A stretch of DNA of 63,948 nucleotides, counting the filler. It is 6 parts of 6 records of this genome, joined end to end, with 100 filler letters (N's around TTAATTAATTAA, not from the genome) between each part and the next. Parts side by side here need not be neighbours in the genome. Positions count along the whole stretch, not along the records: positions 1 to 22,978 come from DRR723986_26598; 5 more parts are not named here. One strand, 5' to 3'. A program made the position numbers and the translations under genes. The notes under the pieces were generated by a model, which saw only the letters and a program-made list of their open reading frames with translations, ran no database searches and was not told the origin of the DNA. This document shows, one piece after another, positions 1-34,685 of the stretch (positions within the stretch are counted from its first letter, which is position 1; each line of letters opens with the position of its first letter).

Positions 1-3000
1 CCAAACATAGGTAGAAAGAACCTGTCCGGCGGCATCGTAAATATAGTAAGAAGTCGTTGTAGTTGCGCCATTAACTTCGCGTTTGCGTACGCGATTGCCG
101 GCGGCATCGTACAGAAACGAAATCGTGCGCCCACTACCATAGTCAATTTCAGATACCTTACCATTGACAGTCCAGGCAATGTCAAATCCTTCGGCATTGT
201 CGCGCGTAAGATTTCCAATGTCGTCGTACTCATAGTTGCCGGTAGCCTGGCCACCGTTGATATCAACTACCGTATTTGCATTGTTAGGTTCCGGATAATT
301 TCCGTTGGGTGCGCTATCAATAACTCGCTCCAGTCGATTGCTCGCAGCTCCATACTGGTTGGGAACATAACGATACTCAAAGTCATCCATGCGAACCATA
401 TTGCTGCGATCGCCACCTCGCTCAAGCGTCAGCAGGTTGCCATTCGGCGAGTAACTGTAATTCGTACAGAATCGATCGCGCGTTGCTGCGCTGGATGGTT
501 GTGTAAAGAAATAGGCATTTGCAACCTGCCGATCCCAGTGTGCAAACCAATACTCGGCACTGAGTAATCTGTTGAGTACATCATACTCAAAAACGTAGGC
601 CGCCTGTTTGTTGCCAAAACGCAGGTCACCGGCATCAGCGTGGCCCGTTTGCCAAACGGCAATGTTTCCGTTGTACAGCGAACGATTTGCCTGAATAAAT
701 GGATCATCAGGGCCTGCAGTTCCAAATCGCTGTTCCAGTGCACCACTACGACTGTAGTCACCCACGTAGTAGTTAAGCATCATCCCGAAGGCATCATGAG
801 CCGTGCGCTCATTAGCAGATCCGACACCTACGATACCATCCTGACCAGGATCGTGATCCTGCTGTACGGCAGGATGGTTCATGGCTTTGAGCCAACCTTG
901 AATTGTATACACATAGTCCAAGCCCTGGATATTGTCCTCACCCAGTGTTGTGCGTTTAAGTGGACCATGTAAATAGTATTCGTAACGTGCATCGCGATCC
1001 CAGAACTTGCCGTCGTCGGAAGTCCATGCTGAAGTAAGGCGATTATCCTCATCATATGCATAGCGTTGATAGAATTCGTCTGCCAATCCTTCATTATACG
1101 ATAGACACAAGACATTGCCAGAAATCAGATCGTACTCATAACGAACATATTTTTCGCGAATATCCGGAATATCGTTGATTAACCATTCAACATTACCATG
1201 CGGATCATAGGAATACACTACGGTTGCACTACTTGAGCTTTCTTCCGCATTGGAAACTATGTAGGAAACGCGGTTGCGCAAGTAACGCTGTCCAACATTA
1301 CCCAGGTAGCTATAGCCGGGAGCCGGTTCTGTGTAGAAAGTTTGTGTGACTTGCTCAGTCAATAAAGACGGAAAATCGGGATCCCCAATTTGAGTTAGTG
1401 CATTTGTGTAATTGTTGGCTTGGCCAACTTCCACAATACGTCCCAACTCATCGTATTTTGCGTAAGAGTAGTCTGCATTATCTTCTTGCCTGTCATTTTG
1501 CGAGAACCGCAATTGTCCATTGGAGTTGTAGGCAAAGTTTGAAATTCCGCCATCGGGGGTACTACTGGCCAGCAATTCTCCCAGGGAGTTAAATGCATAC
1601 TGCGATGGCATATTATGCCCAGGATTTGCAGTACGTCCCAAAGCAATGTCGTGATATTGAACACCCTCTGGTGGGATCGTCTCTATCAAGTTACCCGCAC
1701 GGTCATAGTAGTACAGGGTAAAGTGATTGTAGTTTAGATCGTAATCTACACTTAGCACTTCTGTGAATGCCTCTGGCGTGGAACACCCCGCTTCATAACG
1801 TTCAGCAAAAACGCGGTAGGCATTATTGACAATATTCTGAATCTGTACTTCAATTTTACGGCGAACAACGGGAATCAAATCTGCCAGGCAGCCCTTGGGT
1901 ATGTGTTTTGTGACATTCGAACTTTCAATGATATCGGTATCAAGGTCTAAAAATCGCAGACAGATTTGCTGACACGTTGATGGACGCTCACATAAATTTT
2001 CGCAGATCCTGATGCCGGTCAAACTTTCACCAATTTGCTGTAAACACTCATATTTTGTCAGCCATTGCTCATCACTCTGTGGTGGAGATTTAGCTAAGGT
2101 TATATAGTCCGGAAAACAAGCAGGTGAAAAGTTCGACAACTCTTCAATGACGAGGTTGCAACCGGCATCTAATTGAAATCTGACTGGGTAAATGTCCAGG
2201 ACTAAGGCATTATGTTTGTCAATCAGAATTTCTTTGAGGTAAAGTACTATGTCAATTGAATGAATTTCTCTTGGAGTCGGCTGACTATTAACAAATTGCC
2301 CAAAACAGCTTTGATTCTGATAAACATTCGTCGTTGCGTTGGTTTCTCCAAGGAAGTCTGCAAACATGGCGTGCAGCTTGTTTTCCATGATGGTTATCAC
2401 TGCTTGGCTAGCCGCAGCTCCGCTGTGCAGATCGTATTGAGCCTGAGCCAAGATGAGGTTGACATCGTCGAGAAACGTGACGATCGCACTTGTAGCTGTA
2501 AAGTCAGAATACGTTCCCAATTCGCGATAGCCAATAGGGCACTCAACTTCACCCTCCATCCATTTTAACTCGAACGGGAAGCCTGAAATCAGTTTGGCCG
2601 CTTCTTCGAGTTCAAGCACTTCGGCCTGACTCTCTTCAACAGTCATGACTTTCAGAGTGTTATCCGATTCATCTGGAGCCAAGGCTGCACAGGCTCGCGT
2701 ACATTCATCGATCAAATCACCGATGATACAGTTTAAGACTAAAGAGTTGATAGTCGCATTCGTACCGAATTGTTCCTGATGTGCGCGCACTGCAGCCAGT
2801 TCAAACTCGTCCCTGCGCTCAACGCAAATATTTGCACATGTTGATTTCCATTCCGCAATTTTAGCAACTCGTTCAACTTCTAATTGGGCCGCCTCCTGCG
2901 GAGTGGGAGCTTTTTTTCCACCACCACGAAGCCAGCAGGTGTAGACATATTCATTAAAGTCTTTCTCTTCCTGAGTAGTTTGCGGGGCACCAAAAGCAGC

Positions 3001-6000
3001 CGTAGCTAAGTCTCTGCAAGCATCATACTGCGCCTCACTATACTCAGCTTTGTTGAACGATTCACTTGCATCAGCGGTAAAAAACTTATAAAACTTCAGG
3101 TAATCATCATCTTGGCTATCGGGAAGCGATGACTCAATTTCACAGAATTCACGACCAGTACAATCCAGAAACAGATCGAGCAAAGAGACACATGTTCCAT
3201 CTGAATAATCTTCGATCCACGTACCCTGAGCTGTTAAATCCAGGTCGACTTTGAAATCTGCCTCGTTATCTCCGTTCTGAAACACCTCGCCAAGATCATT
3301 CTTTTTGACTGTTAATGCAGCAAACTGATCAACGGCATTTGTCCAACAGATCCATAACTCTTCATTGCCATATCCATCTTCGCTCATTTTCCCGAGCATT
3401 TGCTCAAGCGTACTTTCAGTTAAGTACGTCGGATAAGCAGGGTGCTTCTGCGGATGGATTCCGTCGCCACAGCTTATCGAGAAATACTGGGAAAAATTTT
3501 GCGGGTATTTATCACCAGTACCATCAGTTGGATTGTCCCCCCACGATTCAAAAGGTATTTTTTCTTCGATATAGGCGACATATTGTTGAAAACTGCGTTC
3601 AAAGCCACATGATTCAACAGGAACTGTAATACTGCCACAGTCTGTACTTAGATTGTTACCTCCAAATTCCTGTTGTAGCCAGGCATACATGTCGTCCAGT
3701 GAGGTTATGGTTTCCAGCGCTTCCGCAGAAAGATATTCCTCCAAGAGTCTGTCAACGCCGTAGTATTCGTCATTAACTGCATCGTACTTCAGACTGTTAA
3801 AGTCACTGCGAATTCCATCATCAATAGCCTGTCTGTACCAACTTAAATGTGATTGGTTTAGCGTTTCTCCATTCGCAAAGTGTGCATCCTCACGATTCGT
3901 ATTTGATTGTATCGTTCTATCAATACGATATGAACCTGCAGGTACATCTTCCACCTCCCAATGTCCACCACGAGAAGTTCCGGCGGCACAGGTTTGCCCG
4001 TTGAGTATGGCAGCTATGTCTTCTGGTCCTATTGTTAATGTAGTCGACCATTCAACAACACAAGTCAGCTGATTAATCAGTTTAATTTCGATGTTAAAAT
4101 CACAAACTGTACACAAATCCAGACAGAACAAACTAACCGTAGCAGCTGTAATTCCATAATCAACTTTAACGTTGCCCGGACCAGATAGAATGATCGTTTT
4201 TCCCGTATTCCACGTATGTGCATCAAGCTGAATATCTACCGGCAGAATATCTTCCGGCATATTGGGGTCAATGATGTCTTCAGTAAAACCACCATTTGGA
4301 TACATTCCTGGGTCGCTGACGGCGTCTAGCTGATGTAAGGGAAAGTTAGAATCCCCCACTACCATCCCTGAAGCAATGACCTGACCAGACTTGTTAATAT
4401 ATTGTACGGTTGCGGTACTATTTGGATCTGAGCTAATTATTTTGGCTACCGAGGATTTGTGCGGTGCTTCATCACCAAACAGCCTGATTAACTCTTCCTC
4501 AGATGCAGAGCCATAAAAGGTCTGCGTGGTATGTCCTCCGCCAATTGCATGTGCGGCACCTGGGCCACCTGATTCAATAACTCGGTTGGTTCCATCTGAG
4601 AGATATATGCTTCGGGAATATGGATATCCTTCCGCACTCGGTACCCAGTCGTCATCGAATCCCGGATCTGCATCGGAATAGTATTCAATCAGGGCACCAC
4701 CATCGGCTGGAGTCGGTGCCTCAAATGTGGATATGGAAGCACCCGTATCGTCAAAATGTTGCTCGTCATATCGTGCTCCGCCTACGGACAGAAAGTCTAC
4801 GCGGGGCAAATAGCTCAGTGCATTACTAGTCACAGATGCCTGGACAGGTGCTGCCAGCGTTTGCAGTGCGGGACGTCCTGAATAGTCATACAGCACTTGT
4901 GAGACAATGCGCTGATCCTGAGAAATCAGCCGCCTCTGGGTTTGTTCACCCTGCAACAATTCGGAGGCAAACTGGAGCCCCTCGGAAAGTTTGCCATCTT
5001 CAGCAAACTGCCGACTAAAGGACCAGTTGCGGTCGTTCTCAAGCCCCTCATAGAAGAAGACACCTTTACGGGCAACCGGCAAATTTCCAGTCTCATCCAG
5101 CGTTATGATGCCTTCGGCATCCACAGGCGGAGTCAATGACCAACGCCCCCAGTTTAACGGGTTTGCCACACCTCCCGGAAACGCATTGCCAATTGGGCGA
5201 ACTCTCCACAAATAGAAACCACGTCCTTCTGCAAGCGTAAATTCAATCTCGGCATTTGTTGACTCCAACGTAAGTGCCTGCTTCCAGTCTACCAACGCCG
5301 AAACCGTTAACTCATTCGTTGTACCAGAGGTAGAACGATTATACAGCCTCAGCATCTGAAATTGATATGACGGAAAGTTAGAAGCACAGGTAATACTCCC
5401 CCATGTAAACTGAACTGGATTCGCCACAACATTGGTCGTCGCTGGGTTCATTGCCTGGACTAGTCGCGCAGCGCCAACCTCCGTTGGAAACAGTGGTTCC
5501 CCAGTTGCACGCCCTCCGTTAGCGAACTCATACTCCACCCAACATCGCAAACGCAACCGATCTGTAACTACAATAGATCCAGATGTCGTCATCCCAGTCA
5601 CAGTCACTTTAGCGTATAGTGGAGCCAGCGTAGAGAATGTACTTATAGATGCAAGAATGTCCGACCGGTGCTGAATTTCAGGCACATTTTCATCGATTGT
5701 TAAATTGCACGTTGTGGAATACAGCCCACTTCCATAGTTACTGGTCGAAATGTACTCATGGAGGTTAACATTTAGTGATAGTGATTGCACGGTTGCACTG
5801 GTACCCAGCTCAAAATCTTCACCAAAATCAAATTGTAGAACCAAAGTAGCAGCGGTGTATACTTCTGTCCCGCATAAACTCCAACTCAGACCGGCATCAC
5901 CAAGCAGAATTTGCCCAAAATCACCACCGACGGATTGACTGGCTGCGCTGCTAAGAGTCGCAAACGTCATGGTGTAAACAGGAACAGTTGCCGGAGGTTG

Positions 6001-6222
6001 TACGTACGCCTGAATCAAGTCCGTGTTCGGTCCCTTACCAGAGGCGGTTGTCACCCCGAATGCAAATATCAATGCGAAAATACTAAGAAGAAAGGCACGG
6101 GATTGTAGAGTATATTCAACTTGCATATTTCTAGTCTCGGACAAACAAGAGACAGCCTTTTTCCAGATGTATTGGAAACTGCTCGTGATCATAATGTTAA
6201 TTGTGACAGGGAAACGGTCCAT
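1..6222 (-). CDS. Giant RHS/YD-repeat protein (>2040 aa), C-terminus truncated by the window edge; not in the ORF track
   Basis: Hand translation of segments of one minus frame. In-frame ATGs at 6222, 6192 and 6126 lead to a signal-peptide-like MQVEYTLQSRAFLLSIFALIFAFGVTTASG. RHS motifs follow: LYDYSGRPALQTLAAP, FTLYYYDRAGNLIETIPPEGV, TPDGGISNFAYNSNGQLRFSQN, YDELGRIVEVG, YSYDPHGNV, YEYDLISGNV, IQGLDYVYTIQGWLKAMN, YDAAGNRVRK...YYIYDAAGQVLSTYVW at base 1. The track lists no closed ORF in this frame, consistent with no stop. Confidence 0.93.
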   Translation of the reverse strand, partial: MDRFPVTINIMITSSFQYIWKKAVSCLSETRNMQVEYTLQSRAFLLSIFALIFAFGVTTASGKGPNTDLIQAYVQPPATVPVYTMTFATLSSAASQSVGGDFGQILLGDAGLSWSLCGTEVYTAATLVLQFDFGEDFELGTSATVQSLSLNVNLHEYISTSNYGSGLYSTTCNLTIDENVPEIQHRSDILASISTFSTLAPLYAKVTVTGMTTSGSIVVTDRLRLRCWVEYEFANGGRATGEPLFPTEVGAARLVQAMNPATTNVVANPVQFTWGSITCASNFPSYQFQMLRLYNRSTSGTTNELTVSALVDWKQALTLESTNAEIEFTLAEGRGFYLWRVRPIGNAFPGGVANPLNWGRWSLTPPVDAEGIITLDETGNLPVARKGVFFYEGLENDRNWSFSRQFAEDGKLSEGLQFASELLQGEQTQRRLISQDQRIVSQVLYDYSGRPALQTLAAPVQASVTSNALSYLPRVDFLSVGGARYDEQHFDDTGASISTFEAPTPADGGALIEYYSDADPGFDDDWVPSAEGYPYSRSIYLSDGTNRVIESGGPGAAHAIGGGHTTQTFYGSASEEELIRLFGDEAPHKSSVAKIISSDPNSTATVQYINKSGQVIASGMVVGDSNFPLHQLDAVSDPGMYPNGGFTEDIIDPNMPEDILPVDIQLDAHTWNTGKTIILSGPGNVKVDYGITAATVSLFCLDLCTVCDFNIEIKLINQLTCVVEWSTTLTIGPEDIAAILNGQTCAAGTSRGGHWEVEDVPAGSYRIDRTIQSNTNREDAHFANGETLNQSHLSWYRQAIDDGIRSDFNSLKYDAVNDEYYGVDRLLEEYLSAEALETITSLDDMYAWLQQEFGGNNLSTDCGSITVPVESCGFERSFQQYVAYIEEKIPFESWGDNPTDGTGDKYPQNFSQYFSISCGDGIHPQKHPAYPTYLTESTLEQMLGKMSEDGYGNEELWICWTNAVDQFAALTVKKNDLGEVFQNGDNEADFKVDLDLTAQGTWIEDYSDGTCVSLLDLFLDCTGREFCEIESSLPDSQDDDYLKFYKFFTADASESFNKAEYSEAQYDACRDLATAAFGAPQTTQEEKDFNEYVYTCWLRGGGKKAPTPQEAAQLEVERVAKIAEWKSTCANICVERRDEFELAAVRAHQEQFGTNATINSLVLNCIIGDLIDECTRACAALAPDESDNTLKVMTVEESQAEVLELEEAAKLISGFPFELKWMEGEVECPIGYRELGTYSDFTATSAIVTFLDDVNLILAQAQYDLHSGAAASQAVITIMENKLHAMFADFLGETNATTNVYQNQSCFGQFVNSQPTPREIHSIDIVLYLKEILIDKHNALVLDIYPVRFQLDAGCNLVIEELSNFSPACFPDYITLAKSPPQSDEQWLTKYECLQQIGESLTGIRICENLCERPSTCQQICLRFLDLDTDIIESSNVTKHIPKGCLADLIPVVRRKIEVQIQNIVNNAYRVFAERYEAGCSTPEAFTEVLSVDYDLNYNHFTLYYYDRAGNLIETIPPEGVQYHDIALGRTANPGHNMPSQYAFNSLGELLASSTPDGGISNFAYNSNGQLRFSQNDRQEDNADYSYAKYDELGRIVEVGQANNYTNALTQIGDPDFPSLLTEQVTQTFYTEPAPGYSYLGNVGQRYLRNRVSYIVSNAEESSSSATVVYSYDPHGNVEWLINDIPDIREKYVRYEYDLISGNVLCLSYNEGLADEFYQRYAYDEDNRLTSAWTSDDGKFWDRDARYEYYLHGPLKRTTLGEDNIQGLDYVYTIQGWLKAMNHPAVQQDHDPGQDGIVGVGSANERTAHDAFGMMLNYYVGDYSRSGALEQRFGTAGPDDPFIQANRSLYNGNIAVWQTGHADAGDLRFGNKQAAYVFEYDVLNRLLSAEYWFAHWDRQVANAYFFTQPSSAATRDRFCTNYSYSPNGNLLTLERGGDRSNMVRMDDFEYRYVPNQYGAASNRLERVIDSAPNGNYPEPNNANTVVDINGGQATGNYEYDDIGNLTRDNAEGFDIAWTVNGKVSEIDYGSGRTISFLYDAAGNRVRKREVNGATTTTSYYIYDAAGQVLSTYVW

Positions 6223-6241
6223 AGCGATCTATGTGCGAAGT

Positions 6242-6991
6242 TCATTTGCTGTTTCGCAAATCTAGTAGCTTCCATGATGCATACGTTTCGGTTACGATCC
6301 CGTCCGTGTCAACCACTTGTGTTAACAAGTCAGGGATCGAATCTGGTAGATTTTCACTCAGGGAGATAGTCAAATCACTCCAACTCATTGAGCGAATGCG
6401 ATTATCGAGGGGATAGCCAAATTCGACTGCTGCAATAGAAGAGTCTGTAACGTTTATGTCGTAGCGGATGCTATTAACACCACCATGGGTATTCCCAGCA
6501 TTTTTCTTAGCAGAACTCAACTGCAACAGGTAAGACCGCATCGCAATGCCTTCATCATCTTCCCAGTCTCGTCGCTCTACAATGAAAAAGTCTTCTGGAT
6601 TCAGCTCAAACAAGGATGATTTGAGAAAGGCAATACTCGATTCAAATGTCTTGCCATTGACATTCCGCAGAACAATTTCTTTGTCTTCATTTGCCAGAGA
6701 AACGGAAAGCGCCTCGCCCTGGACAGAAGTTACCTGAGGACTTTGCATTGCAAGCACATCCTCCGAATAGAACACCTCAACTGCTCCCGTGTAGTCAAGT
6801 CCTTCGGAAACGTCCCGTCCCTTTACGGCCAGTTCATACCGCAAATGCACACCAGACTGTTTCGTCAGCTTTGTCATATTTTCCAGACTTGTCGCCAGGA
6901 ATTGCTGGTCTTGCTTACTTGGGAGCTGCTGCCCAAAGGCACAAACACAAAGACTACAAGTCAGGACAATTCCTATTGTTAACCCTATCAT
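6242..6991 (-). CDS. Exported hypothetical protein, possibly LolA/LppX-like beta fold
   Basis: 249-aa ORF with an N-terminal signal peptide. It starts immediately after the stop of the 2483-aa gene. The helix-then-beta-strand pattern suggests the fold, which is inference only. Confidence 0.75.
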   Translation of the reverse strand: MIGLTIGIVLTCSLCVCAFGQQLPSKQDQQFLATSLENMTKLTKQSGVHLRYELAVKGRDVSEGLDYTGAVEVFYSEDVLAMQSPQVTSVQGEALSVSLANEDKEIVLRNVNGKTFESSIAFLKSSLFELNPEDFFIVERRDWEDDEGIAMRSYLLQLSSAKKNAGNTHGGVNSIRYDINVTDSSIAAVEFGYPLDNRIRSMSWSDLTISLSENLPDSIPDLLTQVVDTDGIVTETYASWKLLDLRNSK

Positions 6992-9900
6992 CTAGAGCCC
7001 CTTTCTTGACTTGAGTGAATCAGTTTGACTATCGTCTGCGCCTTCGATTTCTTGCACATTAAAAGGTATCAGAGAGTCAGGAAGTGAGAAGGTTCTGTTA
7101 AAGTCAAAATCAGACCCGCCACTACGTTGCCCTCGCTGGGGTTGCTGTTTCCAATTTTTGGTTCCCAGGCCAGGGTGTGCTTGCAAACTCGGATCCAGAA
7201 GCGGTTGGCCCTGGTCGATTAACATACCAGCAAAACCAGCACCCCGATCTTGCTTTGGTGTATGATAGTGACTCTCAGAGATTGTCATGAGCCCACGCTC
7301 CGTCTCGCGAACTTGACGGATAAGTTGTCCTTTACCATTGTATTGATAGAAGCTGCCGAAGTGTTGGTCATCAAAAACTGCGACGACCTGATAGTTAAAT
7401 GGATCGTAAACCCACGTTGACATTTCGGCATCTAATGGTTGTACTCGAATATCATCCATGAGTACAGTCCGATTTCCTGGGATATCAACTTTGATATTGG
7501 CAGTCGTTGGCAAGGTTACCCCCAGGGCAGTCCCCGGCTCGAGTCTCGTCTCGTACAGGGCCCATTCGCCGGTTCGTGCAATCTCGCTCAAATTGGTGAG
7601 TGAAATAGTACTACCACCGGTTATCACAAGTTCTCCGGCAGCCAGGCCATCCAGTGACTCATATTCAGAGTCTAGGGCCCAAAACCTGACTAAGAATCCT
7701 CGTTCGTTTAAGCGCTGGTCTATTGGATAACTGTACACCGTATATGGAAGGTCCGACAAATTCCAGGACCAATTTCCTGCATGCGCAGTACCTGGCTTTA
7801 GTCCAAAATTACTTGTGACAAAGCCATGGTCTTCAAAACTGTTGAAATGGCAATCGGCATTACGTGCATTTTGGGCAAGCAGAACCGGGAGCATCTCATC
7901 ATATCCAAACTGGGCTGCACTTGGAATTCCCAGGATATTAACTTCTTCAAGAGCTTCTCCATTGCTGGAGTAGTCCATGACTGTGTTTAACTTCAGCCAT
8001 CCATTTGCAATATTGACTGAAGAATTCGGTGGCTCAAATGGATGGAAGTTATCATACATTCCAGTATTCCAGGTGCGAGTCCCGGAAGTATGGACATCCC
8101 CCGCCATATTAACATTTATTGTTGGAGCTCGATAGACCCAGGTCTCGTGTGGCCGCCAGCGACCACGCTGACCTGTATCAAACACATTATCTGAGTAGAA
8201 TATGCCGGAGTGTGTTTCCATAAAGTTACCCCAGTCATCGCTATATGTCATGGCAGATGCTGCAACTACGGTGCCAGCATAGCTAGCCGGCCCGGCGTTG
8301 CGAAGAGCACTGGGGAATTCCACTTCATCATTAACAAACTCCAAGGCAGAAATATTTATTGGCGCAGAGTCTCCGTGAGAATAGTAAACCAACTGTCCAT
8401 CATCGTCAATCTCAAAATGCCCTGGCCCGGTCGATCTGCGCGTAATAGTCTGAGTCATTCCTGAATGATTGTCAGCAAGAGTTGTCTCATTCAGATACTT
8501 GGTAAAACTCAAGTTATATCTGTGCAAAACATTGCTTTCCCCCAAATCATTCTCCAATAGTAGGCGAAATGCCAATTGTCCGGAGTTTAACATCTCAAAT
8601 CGGCCCACATTATCAGAGACAAACGAGTTCGAAGACTGGTTAACATCAAATAGTTGCTGATAGGTAGCCGTAGTCGTCCCTTGAAAACCTGCCATGCCTC
8701 CCACGTTAGCGGATAGTGCTGCCAAGTTTCCATCCGTATCAGGTATAAAGCCCCATTCCAGCAAACAGTTTTGTGCAGTGCCGCTCCCGCTGTGGGCATA
8801 CATGCGCAACAATGGAGTGTTTGCCGAACCATAGCGTAGTGCCATACTAGACAGCACCTGTATATCACTGTACGATGTTAATTCATGGAAAACAGCTTGG
8901 TCATCATCAAATGGTGCCGGACCAAGAGAATTTGAAAATTCGATTTCCAAATCTTCAAGTTGTTTTGTTCCGCTGGGAGTTCCTTTGACGCAAATACCGG
9001 TAAGATGATTCTTCAGATCATCAGCCCAATTGGCTTGAATGTCGTTTTGGAGCGACTGTACACTTGAATTTGTTAAATCCGCATTAATTTCATGCACAAC
9101 AGTTCCGCAAACGTTTGAAGTCTGGGTTCCCATCACATCGGATGCCGCAGCCCTACCCCATGAATTATTCAGAATCGCGTTTAGATGATCTACAGCTGGA
9201 TGCGGATCATCCTGCCAGCCACAAACTTGTCTGCGCGAGTCGACCGTCATTTTTGTGGGATCATTTTCATCAATATCAAAGAGTATTCCATACTCTCCTT
9301 CCCAACGAGAGTCATTAATCCCTATACTATCTTCATGGAACAATTCCTTGTCAATTCGGATACCTCCAGGAGGCATTTGCCAGTGTTCCAAGGTCATATC
9401 CTTCCCATGCGGCAACTGATTGTTTAAGATGTCGGCAATTGACTGGCGCCTGTATAACTCAGCAGACCACGCGAGTGACGATGATTTGTCTTCGCCATAA
9501 GTTGTGAATGTTGCGTAGTTCGCAGTAAGATTGTTTACACGGTCAACATTGAGAATCCGAATCTTTTTGACGTCAGTTGTACCTGCAGCGGGAATCGTAT
9601 TATCTGTATCTTCAAGGTCAATAGTGATTATACCGCCACTAGGCCCGATGACTTCAGAGACTAACAATTCTTCTGTTATATCATTCAAATACGTAAGCTC
9701 AATCAGATATCCTTCACGAAATTTGGATTGTCCTTCTGCACGGAGTTCAGCCGAGCCATTCGAAAGTTTCAATGCTCGAGTAGTGCTTGTGATACCAGTA
9801 TTTACGTCAATATGAACAGTGTTTTGCATTTTTCCGGTTAACAATGCCGGGTTTGCAGTTCCAGTTTCCTCTAAGAGCAAAGTATTATGGTATCTCCCCA

Positions 9901-14443: not shown

Positions 14444-14550
14444 GATCTCTATATATCCAAACAGATTAATTAATAGTTCATCACCAGAAGCGCCAACACG
14501 CTAAGCCCAGTAGTTTACCAAATCACAAAACAAATCCGTAACACCACTAC

Positions 14551-15210
14551 TTAAGGAGAAGTGTTAATATCAAATGGAAACTTGGGGACAGAGTTTATGT
14601 TTTCACGCTTTATGCGAAAATGATGTATCCCCGATCCAAAGACCTCATCATTAAATACGAAGTCCAGATCATGTTCGCCTTCACTAACCAGATCAGCACT
14701 AAATATTGCTACTGCCACTCGCCTATCAGCGATTCCATAAGTATTGTCAAAACTAGAGATAAGGGGATTAGCGGCTTCATCTCCGACCCGTAACTCCAGC
14801 AATTGCTCCAAACCAAAATTGAGCATCTTCACGCGTTCAGAGTATTCATTGTACGACATTACATCTTTATAGATCACATCACCTTCCGCAGACTCTAGGT
14901 CCACCGTAAATGATAGTTCGACAGCAATATGATTGCTGTAGCTCTCGCTCAATTGTTCGTACTTTGTTAATGAATAGTCATCCCATGCACGCATTTCCCG
15001 ATGAATTACGACATCAATGGGCAAGTACTGCAACGTCATTTGAAGTCCGTCCGATTTGTGTGTACGGTTAAGATTGCTCTCTGCGGAACGCATCCATTCC
15101 TCGTACTCTCCAGGGCTTTCTGGATCATTGTTAGCGTATAATAATGCGACGATTAACACGCACACGCATAGTACCGATGTTGAAACGACCGTTTTTTTCA
15201 TACTGCTCAC
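14551..15210 (-). CDS. Membrane-anchored/exported hypothetical protein (219 aa)
   Basis: N-terminal hydrophobic segment; starts 1 nt after the stop of the OmpH-like gene (translational coupling). Confidence 0.8.
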   Translation of the reverse strand: MSSMKKTVVSTSVLCVCVLIVALLYANNDPESPGEYEEWMRSAESNLNRTHKSDGLQMTLQYLPIDVVIHREMRAWDDYSLTKYEQLSESYSNHIAVELSFTVDLESAEGDVIYKDVMSYNEYSERVKMLNFGLEQLLELRVGDEAANPLISSFDNTYGIADRRVAVAIFSADLVSEGEHDLDFVFNDEVFGSGIHHFRIKRENINSVPKFPFDINTSP

Positions 15211-15211
15211 T

Positions 15212-15760
15212 TTACTGAAGCATATCTTGATAATCTCTGTTAATTAAGTCTATAATTTCGTCAGTAACATCCTGGGCGTCGGCTCCATAGAGGATGCTAC
15301 CTTCAGAGGTCGTTCCAATGATATAACTGTACCCATTCACTTCTCCATATTCTTTGGCGACACGGTTAATGCGGTCCAACACAGCAGAAACGGCGTTCTC
15401 ATGATCTCTATGCATATTTTCTTCGGCTTTGCGAACATGATTAACCAAGTGCAGTTTACGCTGGTGCAATTCTTCGGATGCGGCTTTACCGGCTGACGAG
15501 TTGTCATTGTTTACCGTACTCGCATTTTGGACATCACTTCTGATTGCGCTCTGTGCCTCGTTGACGTCCTGCTTGATGGCATTGCTTTTCTTTTCGAAAA
15601 TGTCAATCGCTTCCTGCATTGCCTTATTTTCCTGAATCAGGCGCGCTGAATTAACAAAACCGATTTTGTTTGTGTTTTTGACTACAACGAAATGGTAGGC
15701 AGCCAAAAACAGCATAACTATAAAGCACATCGCAAAAAGCTGCTGAAGTTTAGAACTCAT
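15212..15760 (-). CDS. OmpH/Skp family chaperone-like protein
   Basis: KIGFVNSARLI, a central coiled coil, and INRVAKEYGEVNGYSYII...ILYGADAQDVTDEIIDLIN are characteristic of OmpH/Skp. Likely ATG at 15760; the track extends to 15808. Confidence 0.85.
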   Translation of the reverse strand: MSSKLQQLFAMCFIVMLFLAAYHFVVVKNTNKIGFVNSARLIQENKAMQEAIDIFEKKSNAIKQDVNEAQSAIRSDVQNASTVNNDNSSAGKAASEELHQRKLHLVNHVRKAEENMHRDHENAVSAVLDRINRVAKEYGEVNGYSYIIGTTSEGSILYGADAQDVTDEIIDLINRDYQDMLQ

Positions 15761-15813
15761 GGGTTTGTCTTCCAATTGGGTTAAGAATGAGGCGTGTGAG
15801 TTTAACAATTAGC

Positions 15814-16494
15814 TTACGGCAGTTCATTACAGGCCTCAACACATGCACTGGTTCCTGGAACCGTTCTTACTCCCCCAGTGCAATCATACGCAACTGCCTT
15901 ACTTACCAAAGTTGCGGACCGTCCAACGGGATTAGAACTATAGGTAACATCATACTCCTCCATACAGCACTGATCCTGCCAACAGCCGATGTATTGAATC
16001 GGACAATCAACCTGAATCAACTCGGTCCAGCAACTCGAACGGACAACCCGGTACCGCTGTGTAGACGGCGTACTATAGACCGATTTAGGCGGCAAAGACA
16101 TAGGGTTTTCAATTAACAGCTCTTTCAGAACATAAGTTATACCCGCAACCATCGTCTGGCCCGCCATAAAGGCCTCGGCAGTTTGGTCAGCAGGAATTAT
16201 CCATTCCAGAAACACATCAAACTGCCCACTTCCGGGATCGTATCGGGTACGGTACTTTACCACCAGTTTTCCGGATGTAGGTGACTCCAAAGTATGATAT
16301 TTGGGAGTGGACCACACCGCATCTATAGATTCACCAGCAATCGGACATGGTGCTGGATCTTGAATTTGAGCGTTAATCGTTCCAGCACAAAACATCAGCA
16401 AGCATATGCCAAACATCTTTAGCACAAGGCCTTGCCTGCTACGTCGGAGTTTGCGTACCACTGCCTGTAGACGGTTTGTCTTTGGTAAACACAT
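15814..16494 (-). CDS. Secreted cysteine-rich protein A
   Basis: Signal-peptide-like segment; SSCW...C...GCWQDQCC...C...CVEAC pattern. Confidence 0.8.
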   Translation of the reverse strand: MCLPKTNRLQAVVRKLRRSRQGLVLKMFGICLLMFCAGTINAQIQDPAPCPIAGESIDAVWSTPKYHTLESPTSGKLVVKYRTRYDPGSGQFDVFLEWIIPADQTAEAFMAGQTMVAGITYVLKELLIENPMSLPPKSVYSTPSTQRYRVVRSSCWTELIQVDCPIQYIGCWQDQCCMEEYDVTYSSNPVGRSATLVSKAVAYDCTGGVRTVPGTSACVEACNELP

Positions 16495-16656
16495 AATTTT
16501 TGCACCTGCTAATTTCCGTTAACACCATATGACATAGTCGAATACTCTGGTAACAGACACCTTTGAATGTTATTCTTAAACATCTCTCAGATATCTCCAA
16601 TCACCCTTTGTGAGAACCATTAACTCCACAGACTTAGCCACATTCATCTCAATTAA

Positions 16657-17349
16657 TTAGTATGAACAACATGCGTCTTCACATTGAGGGTCACTGCTGG
16701 GGACTCCAACATTGTAGATATCACAACTAACTTCTTCGGATATTCCGCGGTGCTGAAGCCTCAATTTGATCACATTGTAATTCACAATTTTGAGACAAAA
16801 TATTGACAAGCAACACACTGAACTTTCGCATGGAACATATTCAACGTAACACCCATCGTTGTACACAACATCACGCTTCCAACAAGAGTTATGCTTAATA
16901 AATACTCTATTTCCATTTGGTGGGGGGCCGCACATATTGAGATTTTCAATTTCAGGAATATTATTTCCCAAAAATTCCATCTTTATCTCAAATAGCACCA
17001 GGCACATGGATTTATTGGCATAGGGATCAACACCTAACGATCCTGGAAACGAGATCTTCTCAAAATGAAATACGATCGAACTTTCGGCGCTCCACCACTT
17101 ATATCCAGGGCAAAACTCCTGACGATATTGTACCGTAACTGGTACTCCATCAGCTAAGTGAAATGTTGCTGTTTTTGACTCTCCTTCATTTGGACAGTTA
17201 CAGAAATGGCCATATTCCTGTGGGGACTGCGCCACAAATTGAAACGCATCTGACTGCGCCGAGACTGATACGTTAAGTCCCAACAATGCCATTGTTAATG
17301 CAATCCCAAAAACCCACCAATTTACTGTGGGAGAGTCAATCTTAAACAT
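16657..17349 (-). CDS. Secreted cysteine-rich protein B (paralog of A)
   Basis: Signal peptide ending VSA-Q; NSCW...C...PCESSVCC...C...CEDAC pattern. Confidence 0.8.
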   Translation of the reverse strand: MFKIDSPTVNWWVFGIALTMALLGLNVSVSAQSDAFQFVAQSPQEYGHFCNCPNEGESKTATFHLADGVPVTVQYRQEFCPGYKWWSAESSIVFHFEKISFPGSLGVDPYANKSMCLVLFEIKMEFLGNNIPEIENLNMCGPPPNGNRVFIKHNSCWKRDVVYNDGCYVEYVPCESSVCCLSIFCLKIVNYNVIKLRLQHRGISEEVSCDIYNVGVPSSDPQCEDACCSY

Positions 17350-17363
17350 ATTCTTACACCCAA

Positions 17364-19658
17364 TTACTTGTTGTATACCACTGGTATTTGAATTTGAGAG
17401 TTACCGTCAGAAACAATGATATAGTAAGCTCCTGTGGCCAAGTTTTCGGAAGATTCGACATCGTCCTCATTAAATTCGAGCAGATGTTTACCGTGGCTCA
17501 ATTGGCCCGAAAATATGTCTGCAACCTTTGTGAAATTAACACTGTACAGATGCACATGGACATACGCGGACTTTGACATTGTGAGGCTAACCGTAAGCTT
17601 ATCGAAAAATGGGTTGGGCCTTACTTCAGCTTGTATTGTATTCGCCTTAAATACATCATCCACAGCATCTGATAGTTCAACGCTGCTGTTGATTTCCGGC
17701 TTAAGAATAGTGCGATCCTGTTTGGCTCCTGCTTGCCCGGTCACACTTATCGAATCAATCCGTGACTCTTTTCCAAACCCTATATGGAAGACGGGCGGCC
17801 CTTGCATTAAGAAGCCGTGGCAGGATTTAAGGAGGGAGCTGTACTGCTTGCCTCCAACATGCACACTCGCAATCTCACCGGTAGCCACACTCGCATCCTT
17901 ACTGGCATCAAGCTGAATGTAGTTGTTATTGTTTACAATTGAATTGTAGTAAATAGCAAACATACCATCGAAGAATGTCACCAGGTCAATCTTCCCATCG
18001 TTGTTAAAATCCGCCAAAACACCGTCATTACCGCCGGTCAAATCCCATAGTCCAGATTCATACGTTTCATCGTGGAAAGTACCAGACCTGGAACCCATCA
18101 TGACCTGTGCTGCACTGCAGGCATTTCCACCAAAGAGTATTGCATCCATGAATCCGTCATTGTCGATATCCCCAAGAACCGTCCCTCCTCGATAGATTGA
18201 CGCTGGAACGCCGACTCGGTAACTGGTCGAACTGTTCTTTACGAGTGCGTGGTGTTCAAATGCGTCAACACTTGCACTAGAATGATCAATTGCCTTGATA
18301 TTATTGGATGAGAAAGTTGAAGCAATTAGCAGGTCACCAGGTTGGCTAACTGCCACATCCATCCCCTGTCTTTTAACATCTGACGGAATTCCACCATGTG
18401 GATCAATCATATTCACAAAATATTTGCTCACTGATTCAGGTATGAATTTCTGATTGCTGTTCACGTATGCGCGCGCAGCCATTTCGTCACCTCCATAACT
18501 AACCAGAAGGTCAACCTTGCTGTCATTGTTGATATCGACTGAAGATATAGAAACGGGATTCAGAAAGGTGATACCATTTACGTCTGAAACTTCAATGGGA
18601 TCCTGGTAAGATTTATTCCCGTCATTGAATAAGACTATAATCTGTCTATCCGTAGATTCACTGTCAGATTCAATCACTGCAAGATCTTCGAAGGAATCTC
18701 CATTAAAATCGGACATAGCAACTGAAGTAGGGTTGTCAATCTGTAAGGACATCAAGGGCTGCGGATTAAACAACAGGCTACCCGAATTTATGTAAAGAGT
18801 GTCAACCCCAGGGTAGAAAGCAATTATATCTACCAGACCATCCAAATCGATATCAGTAAAAAAGTGTGCTTTGGCATGCTGCAGACCACTGGGAAAGTTT
18901 TGCACCTCGCTGAAATCATTTCCTGCATTATTCATGTAAAGACGCCCACCCACAAGAATATCAAGCCACTCGTCATCATTAACATCGTAGCATGCAATAT
19001 TATCACCGGCGATGTTTTCAGGCAGCCCAACAAGACTTGTAACATCCCTAAAATAGAAACCCGAAGAGTCTAGAGATACATTCTGAACGATATTTAGTGA
19101 AAACTTGAAAGCGTGATTGTTATGAACCCAGTCCCTTTTGCGATGCTTAATATATTGGAATGTGTACACCATTCCATCGTCATTAGTGCATGTCGCTTCA
19201 TAGTCTTCAGAATCCATCAGAATTCTAAAGTCATGCGACATATTAGAGATGACAAGAAACACCTGGCGCTGATTCAAAAACAGATCTTGCTCTAAGTCAA
19301 TTTGGAGAATATCGCGCCCCAATTTTACCGATTCTAAATACCCTTTGGAAATTGGAGTATTTGCTAAATTCGGAAGCATATGACCAGTGGAACCACCATA
19401 GATGCTATACTCAGCTTTTGCGCCAACTTTGTCACAATCAACTTCAATAGATATTCCTTTTAAGGTGGACGGTGCATCAAGGTTAAATCGAGCAGCAACC
19501 ATTTCCACCGAGCGGTCGTTTAATACTTTCTCACGCGAGTTAAATTCATAATGTCGCAGTGTCTGAAAGTCAAATCTATCGGCCGCTATACAGACCAATG
19601 AACCTGCGAACACAAGAATTACAATAATGCCGAAATGTATTTTCTTACTGTTTGTCAT
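17364..19658 (-). CDS. FG-GAP/VCBS repeat protein with ASPIC/UnbV-like domain and T9SS type A C-terminal sorting domain
   Basis: Repeated DxNxDGxxD motifs (DVNDDEWLD, DIDLDGLVD, DFNGDSFED, DINNDSKVD, DIDNDGFMD, DFNNDGKID); GFLMQGPPVFHIGFG (ASPIC-like); C-terminal VRPNPF...LATGAYYI (CTD). Confidence 0.88.
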   Translation of the reverse strand: MTNSKKIHFGIIVILVFAGSLVCIAADRFDFQTLRHYEFNSREKVLNDRSVEMVAARFNLDAPSTLKGISIEVDCDKVGAKAEYSIYGGSTGHMLPNLANTPISKGYLESVKLGRDILQIDLEQDLFLNQRQVFLVISNMSHDFRILMDSEDYEATCTNDDGMVYTFQYIKHRKRDWVHNNHAFKFSLNIVQNVSLDSSGFYFRDVTSLVGLPENIAGDNIACYDVNDDEWLDILVGGRLYMNNAGNDFSEVQNFPSGLQHAKAHFFTDIDLDGLVDIIAFYPGVDTLYINSGSLLFNPQPLMSLQIDNPTSVAMSDFNGDSFEDLAVIESDSESTDRQIIVLFNDGNKSYQDPIEVSDVNGITFLNPVSISSVDINNDSKVDLLVSYGGDEMAARAYVNSNQKFIPESVSKYFVNMIDPHGGIPSDVKRQGMDVAVSQPGDLLIASTFSSNNIKAIDHSSASVDAFEHHALVKNSSTSYRVGVPASIYRGGTVLGDIDNDGFMDAILFGGNACSAAQVMMGSRSGTFHDETYESGLWDLTGGNDGVLADFNNDGKIDLVTFFDGMFAIYYNSIVNNNNYIQLDASKDASVATGEIASVHVGGKQYSSLLKSCHGFLMQGPPVFHIGFGKESRIDSISVTGQAGAKQDRTILKPEINSSVELSDAVDDVFKANTIQAEVRPNPFFDKLTVSLTMSKSAYVHVHLYSVNFTKVADIFSGQLSHGKHLLEFNEDDVESSENLATGAYYIIVSDGNSQIQIPVVYNK

Positions 19659-19679
19659 ATCGTAAACTCAAATTGTACT

Positions 19680-21935
19680 TTAATTGAGGTCCTTGTCGCA
19701 GTCAACACATCTTGCTGGGAAGTCACTTGATTCTGTTGTACCAACAACAGATATTCGGCCATATACATCTGAAGCAATTGAATTGGCAATGTCATGTTCT
19801 GAACCACCTATGTAAGCGGCTCTTGTAATTTTTCCGAGGTTATGACTCAATTGTACAAACCATGAATCATATTTACCCGAGTAGTTTAAGTGTGCAGATC
19901 CAAACTCATCGTCCACAAGTGGAAAGTCAGTTGATTTTGTAATTCCGCAGACAGCAACCTGTCCTGAGGTAACGTAATAAATTACGTCGATCGCCTCTTC
20001 ACCTCCAGAACCGTTAATCAGTGTACTCTCCGAACGAATAAACGAGCTAGCACCGTATAAACAGACAAAAGCACGCGTACTACTAACCGCAGAGACAGTT
20101 GATACGGTACGAGTTACAGGAAAATCAGATGACAGAGTTGCCCCAACTACGCACACTGCATTCGAAGTCACATCATACGCCATTCCATAAGCAACGTCAC
20201 TATTGGTCGACCCCAAGTATGTAGACTGAGATAACATCATATCACCTGCCTGCGTGTAGACCAGATGCGACAAAAATGCGTCTCCGTTGCCTCCATAGGA
20301 CGCGTCATACTGTGGGCCGGCAGAAACATGGAAGTTCGTAGAGTACGTTAAGCCCGTCATAATAAAAGAGTAGTTCAATGTTGGTTCTGCTATTAAATCC
20401 AAAGCCCTGTCATCGTTTGTACCCCCTAAGAATACGGATGCGACTTGACTGGTAGCTGAACTTGAAACAATGGCAAGAAATGCGTCTTGCCCACCACCCG
20501 CGTGCCCTAACTGTAAAACGCTGTTGTTTGTCGAGGACTTAACGGTGTTTGTTGTGAACGGAACACTACTAGCTGAAGCAAAACCACACACAACCGGCTC
20601 GTGCGTTTGGGCATTAACATCTATTCCATAGGCATACTCATCTCCATCTCCTCCCAAATACATGAGAGAAAGGGGCGCATTCAAGTCACTGTTAACTCTC
20701 AAAATGAATGCATCAGAATTACCCCCAGAATAGCTCCCATGCTCAACACCTGAATTCGGCAGATTCATTTGTCCACCAGTGTAACCCGTAATAAGAAGTG
20801 ATTGGTCATTGGGGTCAAAAACAGCCGCCAAAGGGCGGTCGTTGTATACACCTCCAATGTAGAGCATTTGCAGAATATTTTCTCCGTCTTGAGATATCTT
20901 TGCAACATATATATCGTCATTGGCTACATACTGCCCAGAGCTACTTCCAATGCCACCCTGCCCGCTATCAAATAGACTGGAACTTGTTGCTCCCACGATT
21001 ACTGAGTTAAACTCATCATCTATTAGCACTTCTGTTGCAATGTCAACTGAGCTACCGCCGATATAGCTAGATGAAATCAAAGGGTCAATAATCAGTCGCT
21101 TCTTTTTGCTATATTTTCCTAGTTTGAATGTAACTGTATTGTTACCTTGTACTTTGAAATTAGCATCCACGGTACGGCGAGTTCTTGCGGAAGTGTTTTG
21201 ATAGGCTGCCAGCCCTGACTGGGTTATGTGCCCCAGCGAAGTATGTATTAACAGGTCGCCTTCGGAATCAACCTCTACGGAGCTAGCCCCGTCATACTCT
21301 ATCTGAATTTTGTCTGCCTGGCCATGTGGATCAACATATATATCGTAGCGTACATGTCCGGCATCAAAATAAAAGCGTACTGACACTCCTTTGTACACGT
21401 CTGAAATGTGAACTTCCTGATATCTATTGGCTTCTATTACCTCGTTCTCAAATTCACCAGGCATCCCTTTCGCGTAAATAACTGGAGCCCCAGCTTTGTG
21501 CACGCCGTAAATGCGTGACTCTCTACTCATTTTGCGATTGAGGTTGTCTGAGTCGTTCGGTGCGTCTTTTCCGCCTCGATCAATTTTACTATTCTTGAAT
21601 TTCATTTTAACTATATGTCGGTCAATCTTCACAGAATCTGCACCAAAATAGCGATAGACATCGTAGTTAAAGTTGTTCTTAACCGGCGCACTAAAACGCT
21701 TGACCTTACTCAGCTCCAGATAGATACCACTTTCTGTGATCCAGGTCGTCAGCCCTTTCTCTTGCGCCTGAAATAGTATATCCGGCTTCCATTGCCCGTT
21801 ATTTTCAACAAAGTAGAGTGACCTACGGCTATTGGATTCATTTTGTGCAAAAACTAGTGAAGGTACGTTTAGTACAGCCAGTAGGAGAAACGCAAATGTC
21901 ACCCTAGCGCTTTCTTGAAAGCGATTTCGTTTCAT
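19680..21935 (-). CDS. SBBP (seven-bladed beta-propeller) repeat protein
   Basis: FVENNGQW N-terminal domain, LIIDP, repeated YIGGS/YLGG..D.A and GxTxSxDFP motifs. ATG at 21935; the track starts at 21959. Confidence 0.88.
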   Translation of the reverse strand: MKRNRFQESARVTFAFLLLAVLNVPSLVFAQNESNSRRSLYFVENNGQWKPDILFQAQEKGLTTWITESGIYLELSKVKRFSAPVKNNFNYDVYRYFGADSVKIDRHIVKMKFKNSKIDRGGKDAPNDSDNLNRKMSRESRIYGVHKAGAPVIYAKGMPGEFENEVIEANRYQEVHISDVYKGVSVRFYFDAGHVRYDIYVDPHGQADKIQIEYDGASSVEVDSEGDLLIHTSLGHITQSGLAAYQNTSARTRRTVDANFKVQGNNTVTFKLGKYSKKKRLIIDPLISSSYIGGSSVDIATEVLIDDEFNSVIVGATSSSLFDSGQGGIGSSSGQYVANDDIYVAKISQDGENILQMLYIGGVYNDRPLAAVFDPNDQSLLITGYTGGQMNLPNSGVEHGSYSGGNSDAFILRVNSDLNAPLSLMYLGGDGDEYAYGIDVNAQTHEPVVCGFASASSVPFTTNTVKSSTNNSVLQLGHAGGGQDAFLAIVSSSATSQVASVFLGGTNDDRALDLIAEPTLNYSFIMTGLTYSTNFHVSAGPQYDASYGGNGDAFLSHLVYTQAGDMMLSQSTYLGSTNSDVAYGMAYDVTSNAVCVVGATLSSDFPVTRTVSTVSAVSSTRAFVCLYGASSFIRSESTLINGSGGEEAIDVIYYVTSGQVAVCGITKSTDFPLVDDEFGSAHLNYSGKYDSWFVQLSHNLGKITRAAYIGGSEHDIANSIASDVYGRISVVGTTESSDFPARCVDCDKDLN

Positions 21936-22249
21936 ATGATTCACGATATACGATTTCAAGCAAGCTCCGCCAGTTAAGCTTTAAACCTAACTAGATTCCC
22001 TGTGCAGAATCGTTTGTGTATGTTTTATTTCCGGCATCCTACGCGAATACCGCATACCTCAGACAGGCCAGGTTAATTAACTGGCTGCTTTCGGGTTTTT
22101 GATCTCAGATAAACAACTGTAAGGTAAAACAGATTACCTAACAGTCTCTCCAATGGGATATGCAATAAAACTGGTTGGATCGTTGTTGATTTGTAAATTC
22201 TCGTCTTACACCTGATACGACTCTGTGACTTGAATTGAAATCAACAGTG

Positions 22250-22257
22250 CAAATATA
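22250..22257 (-). promoter_or_regulatory. Putative Bacteroidota-type -7 promoter box (TATATTTG) for the contig-1 cluster
   Basis: Matches TAnnTTTG about 315 nt upstream of the first gene; the -33 box is weak. Confidence 0.35.
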
Positions 22258-23690: not shown

Positions 23691-23924
23691 CAAAAATCTC
23701 CAGAGGGTCCGGTTCCAATGAGCCGACAAGGTTCGCGAAAAATCACGACACCTATTTTGCGGTGCGTCAAGTCCCGCTGGTTCTAACAATATTTGTGGCC
23801 ATTTAAAGAGGGCCGGCTTCGCTTAAATCAATTAAAATACAAGGGTCTGCCGGAAATCGTGTTGGCAGATTTAATTTGCGGATCGAATTAAATTGAGGCG
23901 GTCGGCACCGCCGCCCGGCGAGTT

Positions 23925-34585: not shown

Positions 34586-34685
34586 NNNNNNNNNNNNNNN
34601 NNNNNNNNNNNNNNNNNNNNNNNNNNNNNTTAATTAATTAANNNNNNNNNNNNNNNNNNNNNNNNNNNNNNNNNNNNNNNNNNNN
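34586..34685. other. Artificial contig linker
   Basis: Same spacer. Confidence 0.98.

Follow-up and report, generated by a model that had tools for sequence, protein, structure and literature searches.

We describe here a gene cassette conserved in Bacteroidota that probably makes and exports a Sec-dependent RHS polymorphic toxin, and in which a very large secreted protein, hereafter the giant, would serve as the toxin's dedicated export or presentation partner, a reading that we hold with moderate confidence. The copy under study occupies a contig at positions 1–22978 of a 63,948-nucleotide (nt) stretch of DNA (the window, i.e., the whole stretch that was analysed), which consists of several contigs joined by spacers (44 N, TTAATTAATTAA, 44 N), the remainder of the window being other contigs. 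This copy is a cassette from a Kapaibacterium-like lineage. At the core of the cassette is a pair that appears to comprise the secreted giant of ~2000–2500 amino acids (aa) and a downstream RHS toxin with a DUF6443-like N-terminal module (N-module), and its usual helpers would be an OmpH/Skp-like protein, a ~210-aa lipoprotein and a LolA3-like periplasmic carrier. [quoted passage not shown] Nine minus-strand ORFs, all co-directional, lie within positions 1–21959 of the contig, which ends at 22978:

21960–22978, no strand: 1019-nt non-coding stretch from upstream of g1 to the contig end, presumed promoter region
19680–21959, minus strand, g1: 759-aa secreted DUF7948 protein, lineage-specific accessory
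17364–19658, minus strand, g2: 764-aa FG-GAP/ASPIC propeller with a T9SS type-A C-terminal sorting domain
16657–17349, minus strand, g3: 230-aa secreted Cys-rich protein
15814–16494, minus strand, g4: 226-aa secreted Cys-rich protein
15212–15808, minus strand, g5: 198-aa OmpH/Skp-like periplasmic protein, conserved accessory
14551–15210, minus strand, g6: 219-aa protein from a large family without annotation, most members predicted lipoproteins; conserved accessory
6992–14443, minus strand, g7: 2483-aa secreted giant of an unannotated family
6242–6991, minus strand, g8: 249-aa LolA3-like periplasmic carrier protein, conserved accessory
1–6222, minus strand, g9: RHS polymorphic-toxin partner, 2074 aa present, cut by the contig end

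The coordinates bear out the description in the initial annotation of this DNA, namely nine co-directional genes with tiny gaps, the intergenic distances from g1 to g9 being 21, 14, 162, 5, 1, 107, 0 and 19 nt, with 1 nt and 0 nt at two of the junctions. A hydrophobic signal or anchor segment opens all nine products, as had also been stated (read by eye directly from the sequences, with no signal-peptide predictor). Domains were called on the nine window proteins with Pfam and NCBIfam scans using curated cut-offs.

The strongest evidence for a functional unit comes from the conservation of the neighbourhood. Species-representative genomes were scanned with the giant, which gave 524 confirmed loci, and 80 of these were kept for neighbourhood counts and their ORFs searched with the nine window proteins. 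Matches to the RHS protein were found in 66 loci, to the 219-aa protein in 59 and to OmpH in 53, with far fewer to the FG-GAP protein (10), the Cys-rich proteins (3) and the DUF7948 protein (2). The order was constant across the 80 loci, that is OmpH, 219-aa gene, giant, a gap of ~750–900 nt and RHS, and the gap contains an ORF of 235–290 aa. With positional counts restricted to loci with enough flanking DNA, 65 of 66 loci had the RHS gene downstream of the giant, 48 of 72 had OmpH together with the 219-aa gene upstream of it, and 48 of 66 had a gene like that of the 249-aa protein between giant and RHS; the complete five-gene set was present in 35 of 59. The sole exception to the RHS placement (L012) has divergent large ORFs and a DUF6443 match in the RHS position. 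Gene-neighbourhood searches made through the giant thus recover the cassette repeatedly, and the initial annotation's expectation that the gene set is conserved together holds for the five core genes across Bacteroidota and fails for the four upstream genes, which are lineage-specific.

The pairing was equally evident from the other direction. In a reverse sample of 63 metagenome loci found via the RHS protein, 30 of which had at least 2.5 kb of upstream sequence, the giant lay upstream in 23 of the 30 and the LolA3-like gene in 21, and the exceptions mostly resembled the three-giant variants described below or had truncated flanks. Across five cassette-bearing genomes, all nine ORFs carrying the N-module (g9 residues 300–640) had a giant on their own strand a few kb upstream, and none was found away from giants. 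The giant–RHS pairing is thus near-obligate. Abutting or overlapping ORFs occur at the junctions of other loci as well, and the gaps from g7 to g9 in the window are 0–19 nt. Helpers can plausibly act in trans, since in five genomes the giant–RHS pairs have neither OmpH nor the 219-aa gene in cis, and all five contain the 219-aa family elsewhere; one metagenome-assembled genome (MAG) with at least five giant–RHS pairs has a single copy of this family. A literature search found no description of the giant family or of the five-gene core; supplementary tables might list such neighbourhoods.

The RHS protein that the initial annotation placed at the end of the cluster is confirmed, cut by the contig end. 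Pfam gave RHS_repeat at 1.3e-8 near the cut end and a weak DUF6443 match, and the signal peptide of g9 probably starts from Met33. The first ~1450 aa form a separate N-module with a DUF6443-like conserved region at ~300–640 (no literature on DUF6443 was found), the RHS repeats begin at about residue 1450–1480, and internal repeats were detected at 1466–2071. Judged from complete homologues, g9 is missing ~215–300 aa at its C-terminus and is cut before the RHS core. A look downstream for a variable tip and an immunity gene, as had been suggested, was rewarded in these homologues: they contain the core …YELKDHLGNVR…NYYPFGM…YRYGFNG.EKD…YDPRLGRWLSVDP…NNPI…D.DG, beyond which stand unrelated tips of about 180–260 aa, and a small co-directional ORF lies 0–52 nt 3' of the toxin in 12 of 22 complete loci. 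The RHS region plus core of the partners spans ~600–700 aa. The repeats in the window copy, together with the core and tips of its homologues, mark the RHS partners as genuine polymorphic toxins.

An RHS core and tip were present in 23 of 34 complete partners, the other 11 lacking an RHS core. The idea that the giant persists without an RHS toxin, which these 11 partners had raised, was dropped: Joostella atrarenae has a separate RHS protein further downstream, 3577 aa long, with an RHS region (E = 2.7e-118) and core. Because this species encodes the N-module and the RHS protein separately, g9 can be read as the fused equivalent of these two proteins. The other RHS-less loci probably also keep the toxin on a separate protein, one locus having been extended. 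This arrangement, a three-giant variant, was seen in L092 (G005:C70:8000-26000) with L079, and in L054, L058, L060, L069, L071, L080 and L041. Here the N-module is a separate protein of 1288 aa in L041 and 1556–1683 aa in the other seven loci; an ORF of 134–158 aa follows it in six of the eight, and beyond these lies another large ORF, which in all but J. atrarenae is truncated where the locus ends. In Dawidia cretensis (L091, G004:C272:158500-178400), a second N-module ORF (2374 aa) follows the first RHS partner, and one giant may serve tandem toxins there (G004:C272:157688-158383).

The giant has at least 1853 homologues of ~2000–2500 aa, of which the named ones are all 'hypothetical' and all from Bacteroidota. 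No Pfam domain was present in 119 of 120 homologues among the matches listed, g7 itself had no Pfam or NCBIfam match above cut-off, its family profile found no relative in the PDB, and one homologue in the ESM Atlas falls in clusters of 'hypothetical' proteins only. The layout is nevertheless consistent: a signal peptide, an invariant mature N-terminus and a ~60-aa SpvB/DUF6531-like opening module at residues ~50–115 are followed by a conserved N-terminal part that reaches ~1650, a middle that varies, and a C-terminal domain at ~2050–2400 that is again conserved. Conservation peaks at residues 30–120, where the top-residue frequency is ~0.8 as compared with 0.36–0.53 elsewhere. The LTSGPxQPE motif noted in the initial annotation recurs in the form L-T-[S/G]-G-P-x-x-P-E, after an AxA-type site, in 69 of 70 giants, and because the mature N-terminus is invariant, we suggest that it could be a recognition element. 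In many lineages the giant is split near residue ~1650 into two adjacent ORFs, and the split appears to mark the boundary between the conserved N-terminal part and the variable plus C-terminal part; two-ORF giants were observed in L020, L021, L030, L034, L035, L037, L038, L042, L045, L049, L051, L056, L057, L076 and L078.

The nearest relative of the window's giant within the 524 loci is from a Candidatus Kapaibacterium MAG (41% identity), and a tree of 70 N-terminal giant regions groups the window copy, at 100% support, with the two copies from Kapaibacterium and with L010. For five cassette loci (L010, L036, L041, L043 and L063), the label of the MAG is Hyphomicrobiales, Alphaproteobacteria, Saccharibacteria or Scalinduaceae, and such oddly labelled loci are probably mis-binned contigs rather than gene transfer.

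The initial annotation had called g7 a 'SpvB-like YD protein' and had proposed that it and g9 form two complementary YD half-shells as TcB and TcC do in Tc toxins. The first description shrinks to a ~60-residue module. SpvB matched g7 at residues 54–115 only (E = 0.049 for the whole protein, 0.007 for the first 500 aa). Over the first 500 aa of 70 giants, SpvB positions ~2–70 were matched in 62 and DUF6531 positions 2–49 in 63, the module thus resembling the opener of TcB (SpvB) and Rhs (DUF6531) shells, and all these protein-scan matches were below cut-off (22 bits for SpvB), covering ~60 of 287 SpvB positions. In the genome scan one giant scored 22.7 bits on SpvB positions 3–71, as against 346.5 bits over positions 1–287 for a genuine Tc BC protein from one of the host genomes, so that the giants do not carry the full SpvB domain (PF03534). 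Pfam and NCBIfam found no RHS/YD repeats in g7, which has 0 internal repeats vs. 7 in an RHS control. The TcdB domains midN and midC, which belong to the beta-propeller region, matched no giant position in five genomes even with a limit of E ≤ 1; for the genuine Tc BC ORF their scores were 121.9 and 113.5 bits. Between g7 and g9 there is no mutual sequence similarity, and the giant profile gave a probability below 1% against the family of RHS partners and likewise against the genuine Tc BC protein; the top hhalign alignment to the latter pairs residues 51–114 with 42–100 at 34% identity and is not significant. Apart from the opening module, the giant as a YD half-shell has no sequence support, and the same applies to the proposed pair of complementary half-shells.

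In this model the giant would be a highly divergent TcB analogue whose SpvB-like module begins a YD-type beta-sheet shell, which after Sec export would join the partner's TcC-sized RHS portion in one closed heterodimeric cocoon enclosing the toxin tip; we consider it unlikely. TcB is roughly the size of the giant's conserved N-terminal part (~1650 aa), the natural split falls at that point, and a faint YD-like match exists at the giant's extreme C-terminus. As in a Tc BC pair, one large cassette protein opens with an SpvB-type module and the protein encoded beside it has an RHS core and a variable tip, and the RHS region, core and tip of the partner come close to TcC sizes (851–1050 aa with hypervariable regions of 201–400 in the available text of PMC7861908). 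Tox-MPTase2 tips, one of which is found here (see below), were assigned to the 'TcdB/TcaC' export class by Zhang et al. 2012, as given in the accessible part of PMC3482391. These likenesses are set against the sub-cut-off opener and the absence of repeats, midN and midC described above. The nearest solved relatives of the RHS region, moreover, are self-closed Rhs cocoons of type VI secretion system (T6SS) type (8h8a at 5.8e-15, 8qjd and Tse5 8cp6, among others), and no TcC or teneurin chain was matched in the PDB at E ≤ 0.001. The partner also has ~1450–2070 aa before its RHS region, unlike TcC. Further unlike Tc BC, both cassette proteins have Sec signals, the partner carries an N-module of ~1450 aa, a LolA3-like gene lies between the pair, and OmpH, lipoprotein and T9SS-cargo genes are attached.

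The TcA partner of Tc injectosomes is likewise outside the cassette. Of five cassette-bearing genomes, one contained the TcA-type VRP1 domain (PF03538), which there adjoins a distinct, genuine Tc locus and not the cassette. The earlier statement that no TcA, PAAR, VgrG or Hcp gene is visible therefore stands for the nine-gene cluster, where the Pfam scan of the nine proteins contained none (PAAR, VgrG and Hcp were not searched for genome-wide), and is qualified at genome level by this one VRP1. That Tc-like locus (L089, G002:C42:236500-246500) is in the genome of L038, labelled Roseivirga sp., which has it besides its cassette; it consists of a 2501-aa ORF with the full SpvB, midN and midC, and a neighbouring 2853-aa ORF with the VRP1 match (G002:C42:247211-247495).

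Three smaller genes accompany the pair, and the view that the cluster has dedicated periplasmic-type helpers is upheld by the conservation in cassettes of the OmpH/Skp-like protein, the LolA3-like carrier and the lipoprotein. The product of g5 belongs to the OmpH family as first proposed (Pfam 8.2e-20; 71.9 bits vs. a cut-off of 32.4; positions 1–139 of 141), and its sole PDB match, a weak one, was the Skp chain of 8gl8 (E = 0.0031). This structure is the Flavobacterium johnsoniae T9SS Extended Translocon, in which a trimer of SkpA encloses the N-terminus of SprA as a structural element, according to the portion of PMC10994853 at hand. For g6, no relative was found in Pfam, NCBIfam or the PDB, its family counts 3800 representatives at E ≤ 0.001, and a crude regular expression found a lipobox-like Cys in 48 of 58 family members, with the window copy less clear. 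When the 219-aa family was compared with the LolA3-like family for a LolB-like role, only the signal peptides aligned.

The 249-aa family of g8 is LolA3-like by its profile matches. A profile of 49 positional equivalents matches g8 over its full length (E = 3.1e-16), and NCBIfam LolA3_fam (NF053579) matches 21 of 50 family members (best 3.9e-16) and LolA1_Flavo four; g8 itself scores 21.2 bits (1.7e-4), far below the curated cut-off of 83 bits. Five of 11 LolA3-family matches in five genomes lie directly downstream of a giant, and one of these, the only one of the 11 above cut-off (104.7 bits), occupies the g8 position in the complete cassette of D. cretensis (L091). The 249-aa family profile had no match in the PDB or Pfam, and the cassette LolA3 none in the PDB. 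The published LolA3 proteins are without an assigned function: in the text of PMC11885536 available to us, deletion of F. johnsoniae LolA3 (Fjoh_0605) left gliding and T9SS unaffected, and the part of PMC13103446 at hand reports for Porphyromonas gingivalis LolA3 (PGN0947; crystal structure at 2.3 Å) no LolB binding and that it 'has a separate function'. No mention was found in the literature of Fjoh_0603, 0604 and 0606, the neighbours of Fjoh_0605 by number.

The helpers bring in a further reading, that the giant is a dedicated outer-membrane conduit or anchor like SprA or a two-partner-secretion transporter, with the Skp-like protein clamping its N-terminus and aiding its insertion and the folded RHS toxin leaving or being displayed via the giant. 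The giant is close to SprA in size (2241–2293 aa), carries a Sec signal with an invariant N-terminus after it, and is encoded beside a Skp-like gene; the Skp trimer on the SprA N-terminus in 8gl8 (PMC10994853, as above) fits, and lipoprotein and LolA-type genes would suit outer-membrane assembly. However, comparison of the giant with SprA (TIGR04189) showed no similarity in sequence, hhalign giving a probability of ≤0.3% and hmmsearch no match, and SprA scans of five genomes miss the giants. The ends of the giant family show no C-terminal aromatic beta-signal, crude Chou-Fasman propensities and a transmembrane-beta alternation metric did not discriminate, and the natural two-ORF split would be unusual for a single barrel. 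Taken together, we rate the conduit as distinctly improbable. The likeness to SkpA has its limits: SkpA, too, is a Skp from Bacteroidota, gripping a partner of ~2300 aa at its N-terminus, whereas the cassette OmpH matches it weakly and is a separate, cassette-linked paralogue.

A link to the T9SS, which the initial annotation had drawn from g2, recurs at several points. The FG-GAP/ASPIC description of g2 is sound (FG-GAP_3 9.4e-20, ASPIC 2.6e-5), and so is its sorting domain: although its own Por_Secre_tail match is below cut-off (0.0069; 17.1 bits vs. 27), its C-terminal 84 aa align (E = 2e-7) with the sorting domain of the L049 homologue, itself at 38.8 bits vs. 27, which places g2 among T9SS cargo. 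Its ten loci all belong to basal lineages of the tree. Elsewhere, the 17 co-directional ORFs directly upstream of OmpH include six with CHU_C and one with Por_Secre_tail above cut-off, three with the CHU_C-associated Ig_7 and three leucine-rich-repeat (LRR) proteins; WD40/PD40 propellers with sorting domains are embedded in variant cassettes, and SprA was above cut-off in all five genomes of the window's nearest relatives. For g1, called an SBBP propeller, DUF7948 was found at 1.5e-41, and the SBBP beta-propeller repeats accompany DUF7948 only in its homologues in L001 and L010. The two Cys-rich genes are indeed paralogues, if distant (BLASTP E = 1e-4 with a common Cys pattern), and g3 had no Pfam or NCBIfam match.

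Another view is that the cluster is not one machine, with OmpH, the lipoprotein and the sorting-domain protein forming a T9SS-cargo module and the giant and RHS proteins being independent, co-regulated surface proteins or adhesins. The upstream cargo genes are highly variable and the accessory genes absent in cis from many loci. In genome G006, a lone OmpH–219 pair stands between a PorP/SprF gene (1e-50) and a PKD protein bearing a sorting domain, and this co-directional block (L090, G006:C7:47500-67400) lacks a giant. On the other hand, the giant and the RHS N-module are nearly exclusive to each other in both directions, and the short gaps in the window and the abutting or overlapping ORFs of other loci speak for a unit. 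We therefore hold this view to be very improbable.

The preferred reading, a cassette that makes and exports an RHS toxin with the giant as its partner, can be drawn as a sequence of steps. The giant and the RHS protein would cross the inner membrane by Sec, the helpers would handle both large proteins in the periplasm, and the giant would act as the toxin's export or presentation partner at the outer membrane, beside the T9SS-displayed surface protein, the purpose presumably being contact-dependent antagonism. The way SkpA holds the SprA N-terminus would be a precedent, by analogy, for an interaction between OmpH and the giant (PMC10994853, same portion). A bolder version, which we advance only as a tentative possibility, is that the giant, the OmpH-like protein, the lipoprotein and the LolA3-like protein form a dedicated outer-membrane apparatus that exports and presents Sec-dependent RHS toxins beside the T9SS, in which the Skp-like protein clamps the giant's N-terminus and LolA3 is a component.

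Several observations weigh against the preferred reading. The export steps of the cassette proteins are predictions from sequence. One third of the loci have no OmpH and 219-aa genes in cis, and because the pair in G006 adjoins a T9SS cargo gene and not a giant, these two helpers may have a wider role with some T9SS cargo; six of the 11 LolA3-family matches likewise lie outside cassettes. No T9SS C-terminal sorting domain was found in g7 nor at the C-terminus of 12 complete RHS partners (the Por_Secre_tail match in the L004 partner is internal only, at 453–478, and the C-terminus of g9 itself is missing). A phmmer search of the 80 loci found no PorP/SprF; a PorP/SprF scan of the five nearest-relative MAGs is uninformative, as neither these nor the control genomes gave a match. 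On the toxin side, a Pfam domain was identified in two of 22 tips (Tox-MPTase2 and Peptidase_M23), the remaining tips being without a recognised toxin domain, and none of the 16 small downstream ORFs tested had a known immunity domain. Finally, fused giant–RHS proteins of 4347–5000 aa were looked for and none was found, although this is weak evidence.

Comparison with known systems supports the earlier proposal that this one is distinct from T6SS, contact-dependent inhibition (CDI) and the classical Tc locus. The T6SS Rhs effectors named above agree with the cassette toxin in their RHS core and polymorphic tip and in the immunity-like ORF downstream; the cassette partner differs from them in its signal peptide, in a DUF6443-like N-module that takes the place of PAAR and in its pairing with a giant, and g9, with its N-terminal signal segment and no PAAR or VgrG match, does not classify as a T6SS Rhs effector. 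Closer in setting are the TANFOR toxins, which in the accessible text of Jana et al. 2020 (PMC7073777) are large, Sec-signal-bearing and Bacteroidetes-restricted, stand downstream of T9SS substrates (SprB repeats, PKD, C-terminal sorting domain) and are hypothesised to use the T9SS. The cassette shares the Sec signal and the T9SS-substrate type of neighbours, but its toxin is RHS-based, and in that same text neither a giant nor partners of the OmpH, lipoprotein or LolA3-like kinds are mentioned. Scanned with NCBIfam, the window proteins gave no TANFOR-type match, the presence of a TANFOR model in the library being unconfirmed. Rhs genes of Apibacter also adjoin genes for T9SS sorting domains, according to the part of PMC8125069 at hand.

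The stretch of 1019 nt upstream of g1 (21960–22978) has no ORF of at least 100 aa on the operon strand and no Rfam family, and promoter and terminator scans over 6000–22978 gave counts no higher than the shuffled expectation. A metagenome scan did not extend the window contig, the best match having 43% identity. The rest of the window (22979–63948) comprises at least five more contigs with junctions at 22979, 29428, 34586, 41476 and 55026. Across the window the GC content varies between 34% and 72%, and the contigs beyond 22978 probably derive from different organisms. Among their genes are a class-II fructose-bisphosphate aldolase fragment at 23079–23789 and, on a contig of ~70% GC, overlapping ORFs of 1700–1790 aa on both strands at 34630–40305.

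RHS toxins are known to leave the cell by the T6SS, by Tc injectosomes or, in Gram-positives, by Sec and cell-wall anchoring. The crossing of the outer membrane by the signal-peptide-bearing RHS toxins of Bacteroidota is a question that earlier papers only touch, and the cassette, a polymorphic RHS toxin system with several uncharacterised conserved parts, offers candidate parts for it, namely the giant family of at least 1853 proteins, the 3800 lipoprotein-like representatives and a LolA3 paralogue left without a function by two papers. The cassette occurs in non-pathogenic soil and marine Bacteroidota that are in culture, such as Ohtaekwangia koreensis DSM 25262, D. cretensis and J. atrarenae, which makes these predictions open to genetics. 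If the dedicated apparatus were true, it would be a new secretion route beside the T9SS, and LolA3 would gain a function.

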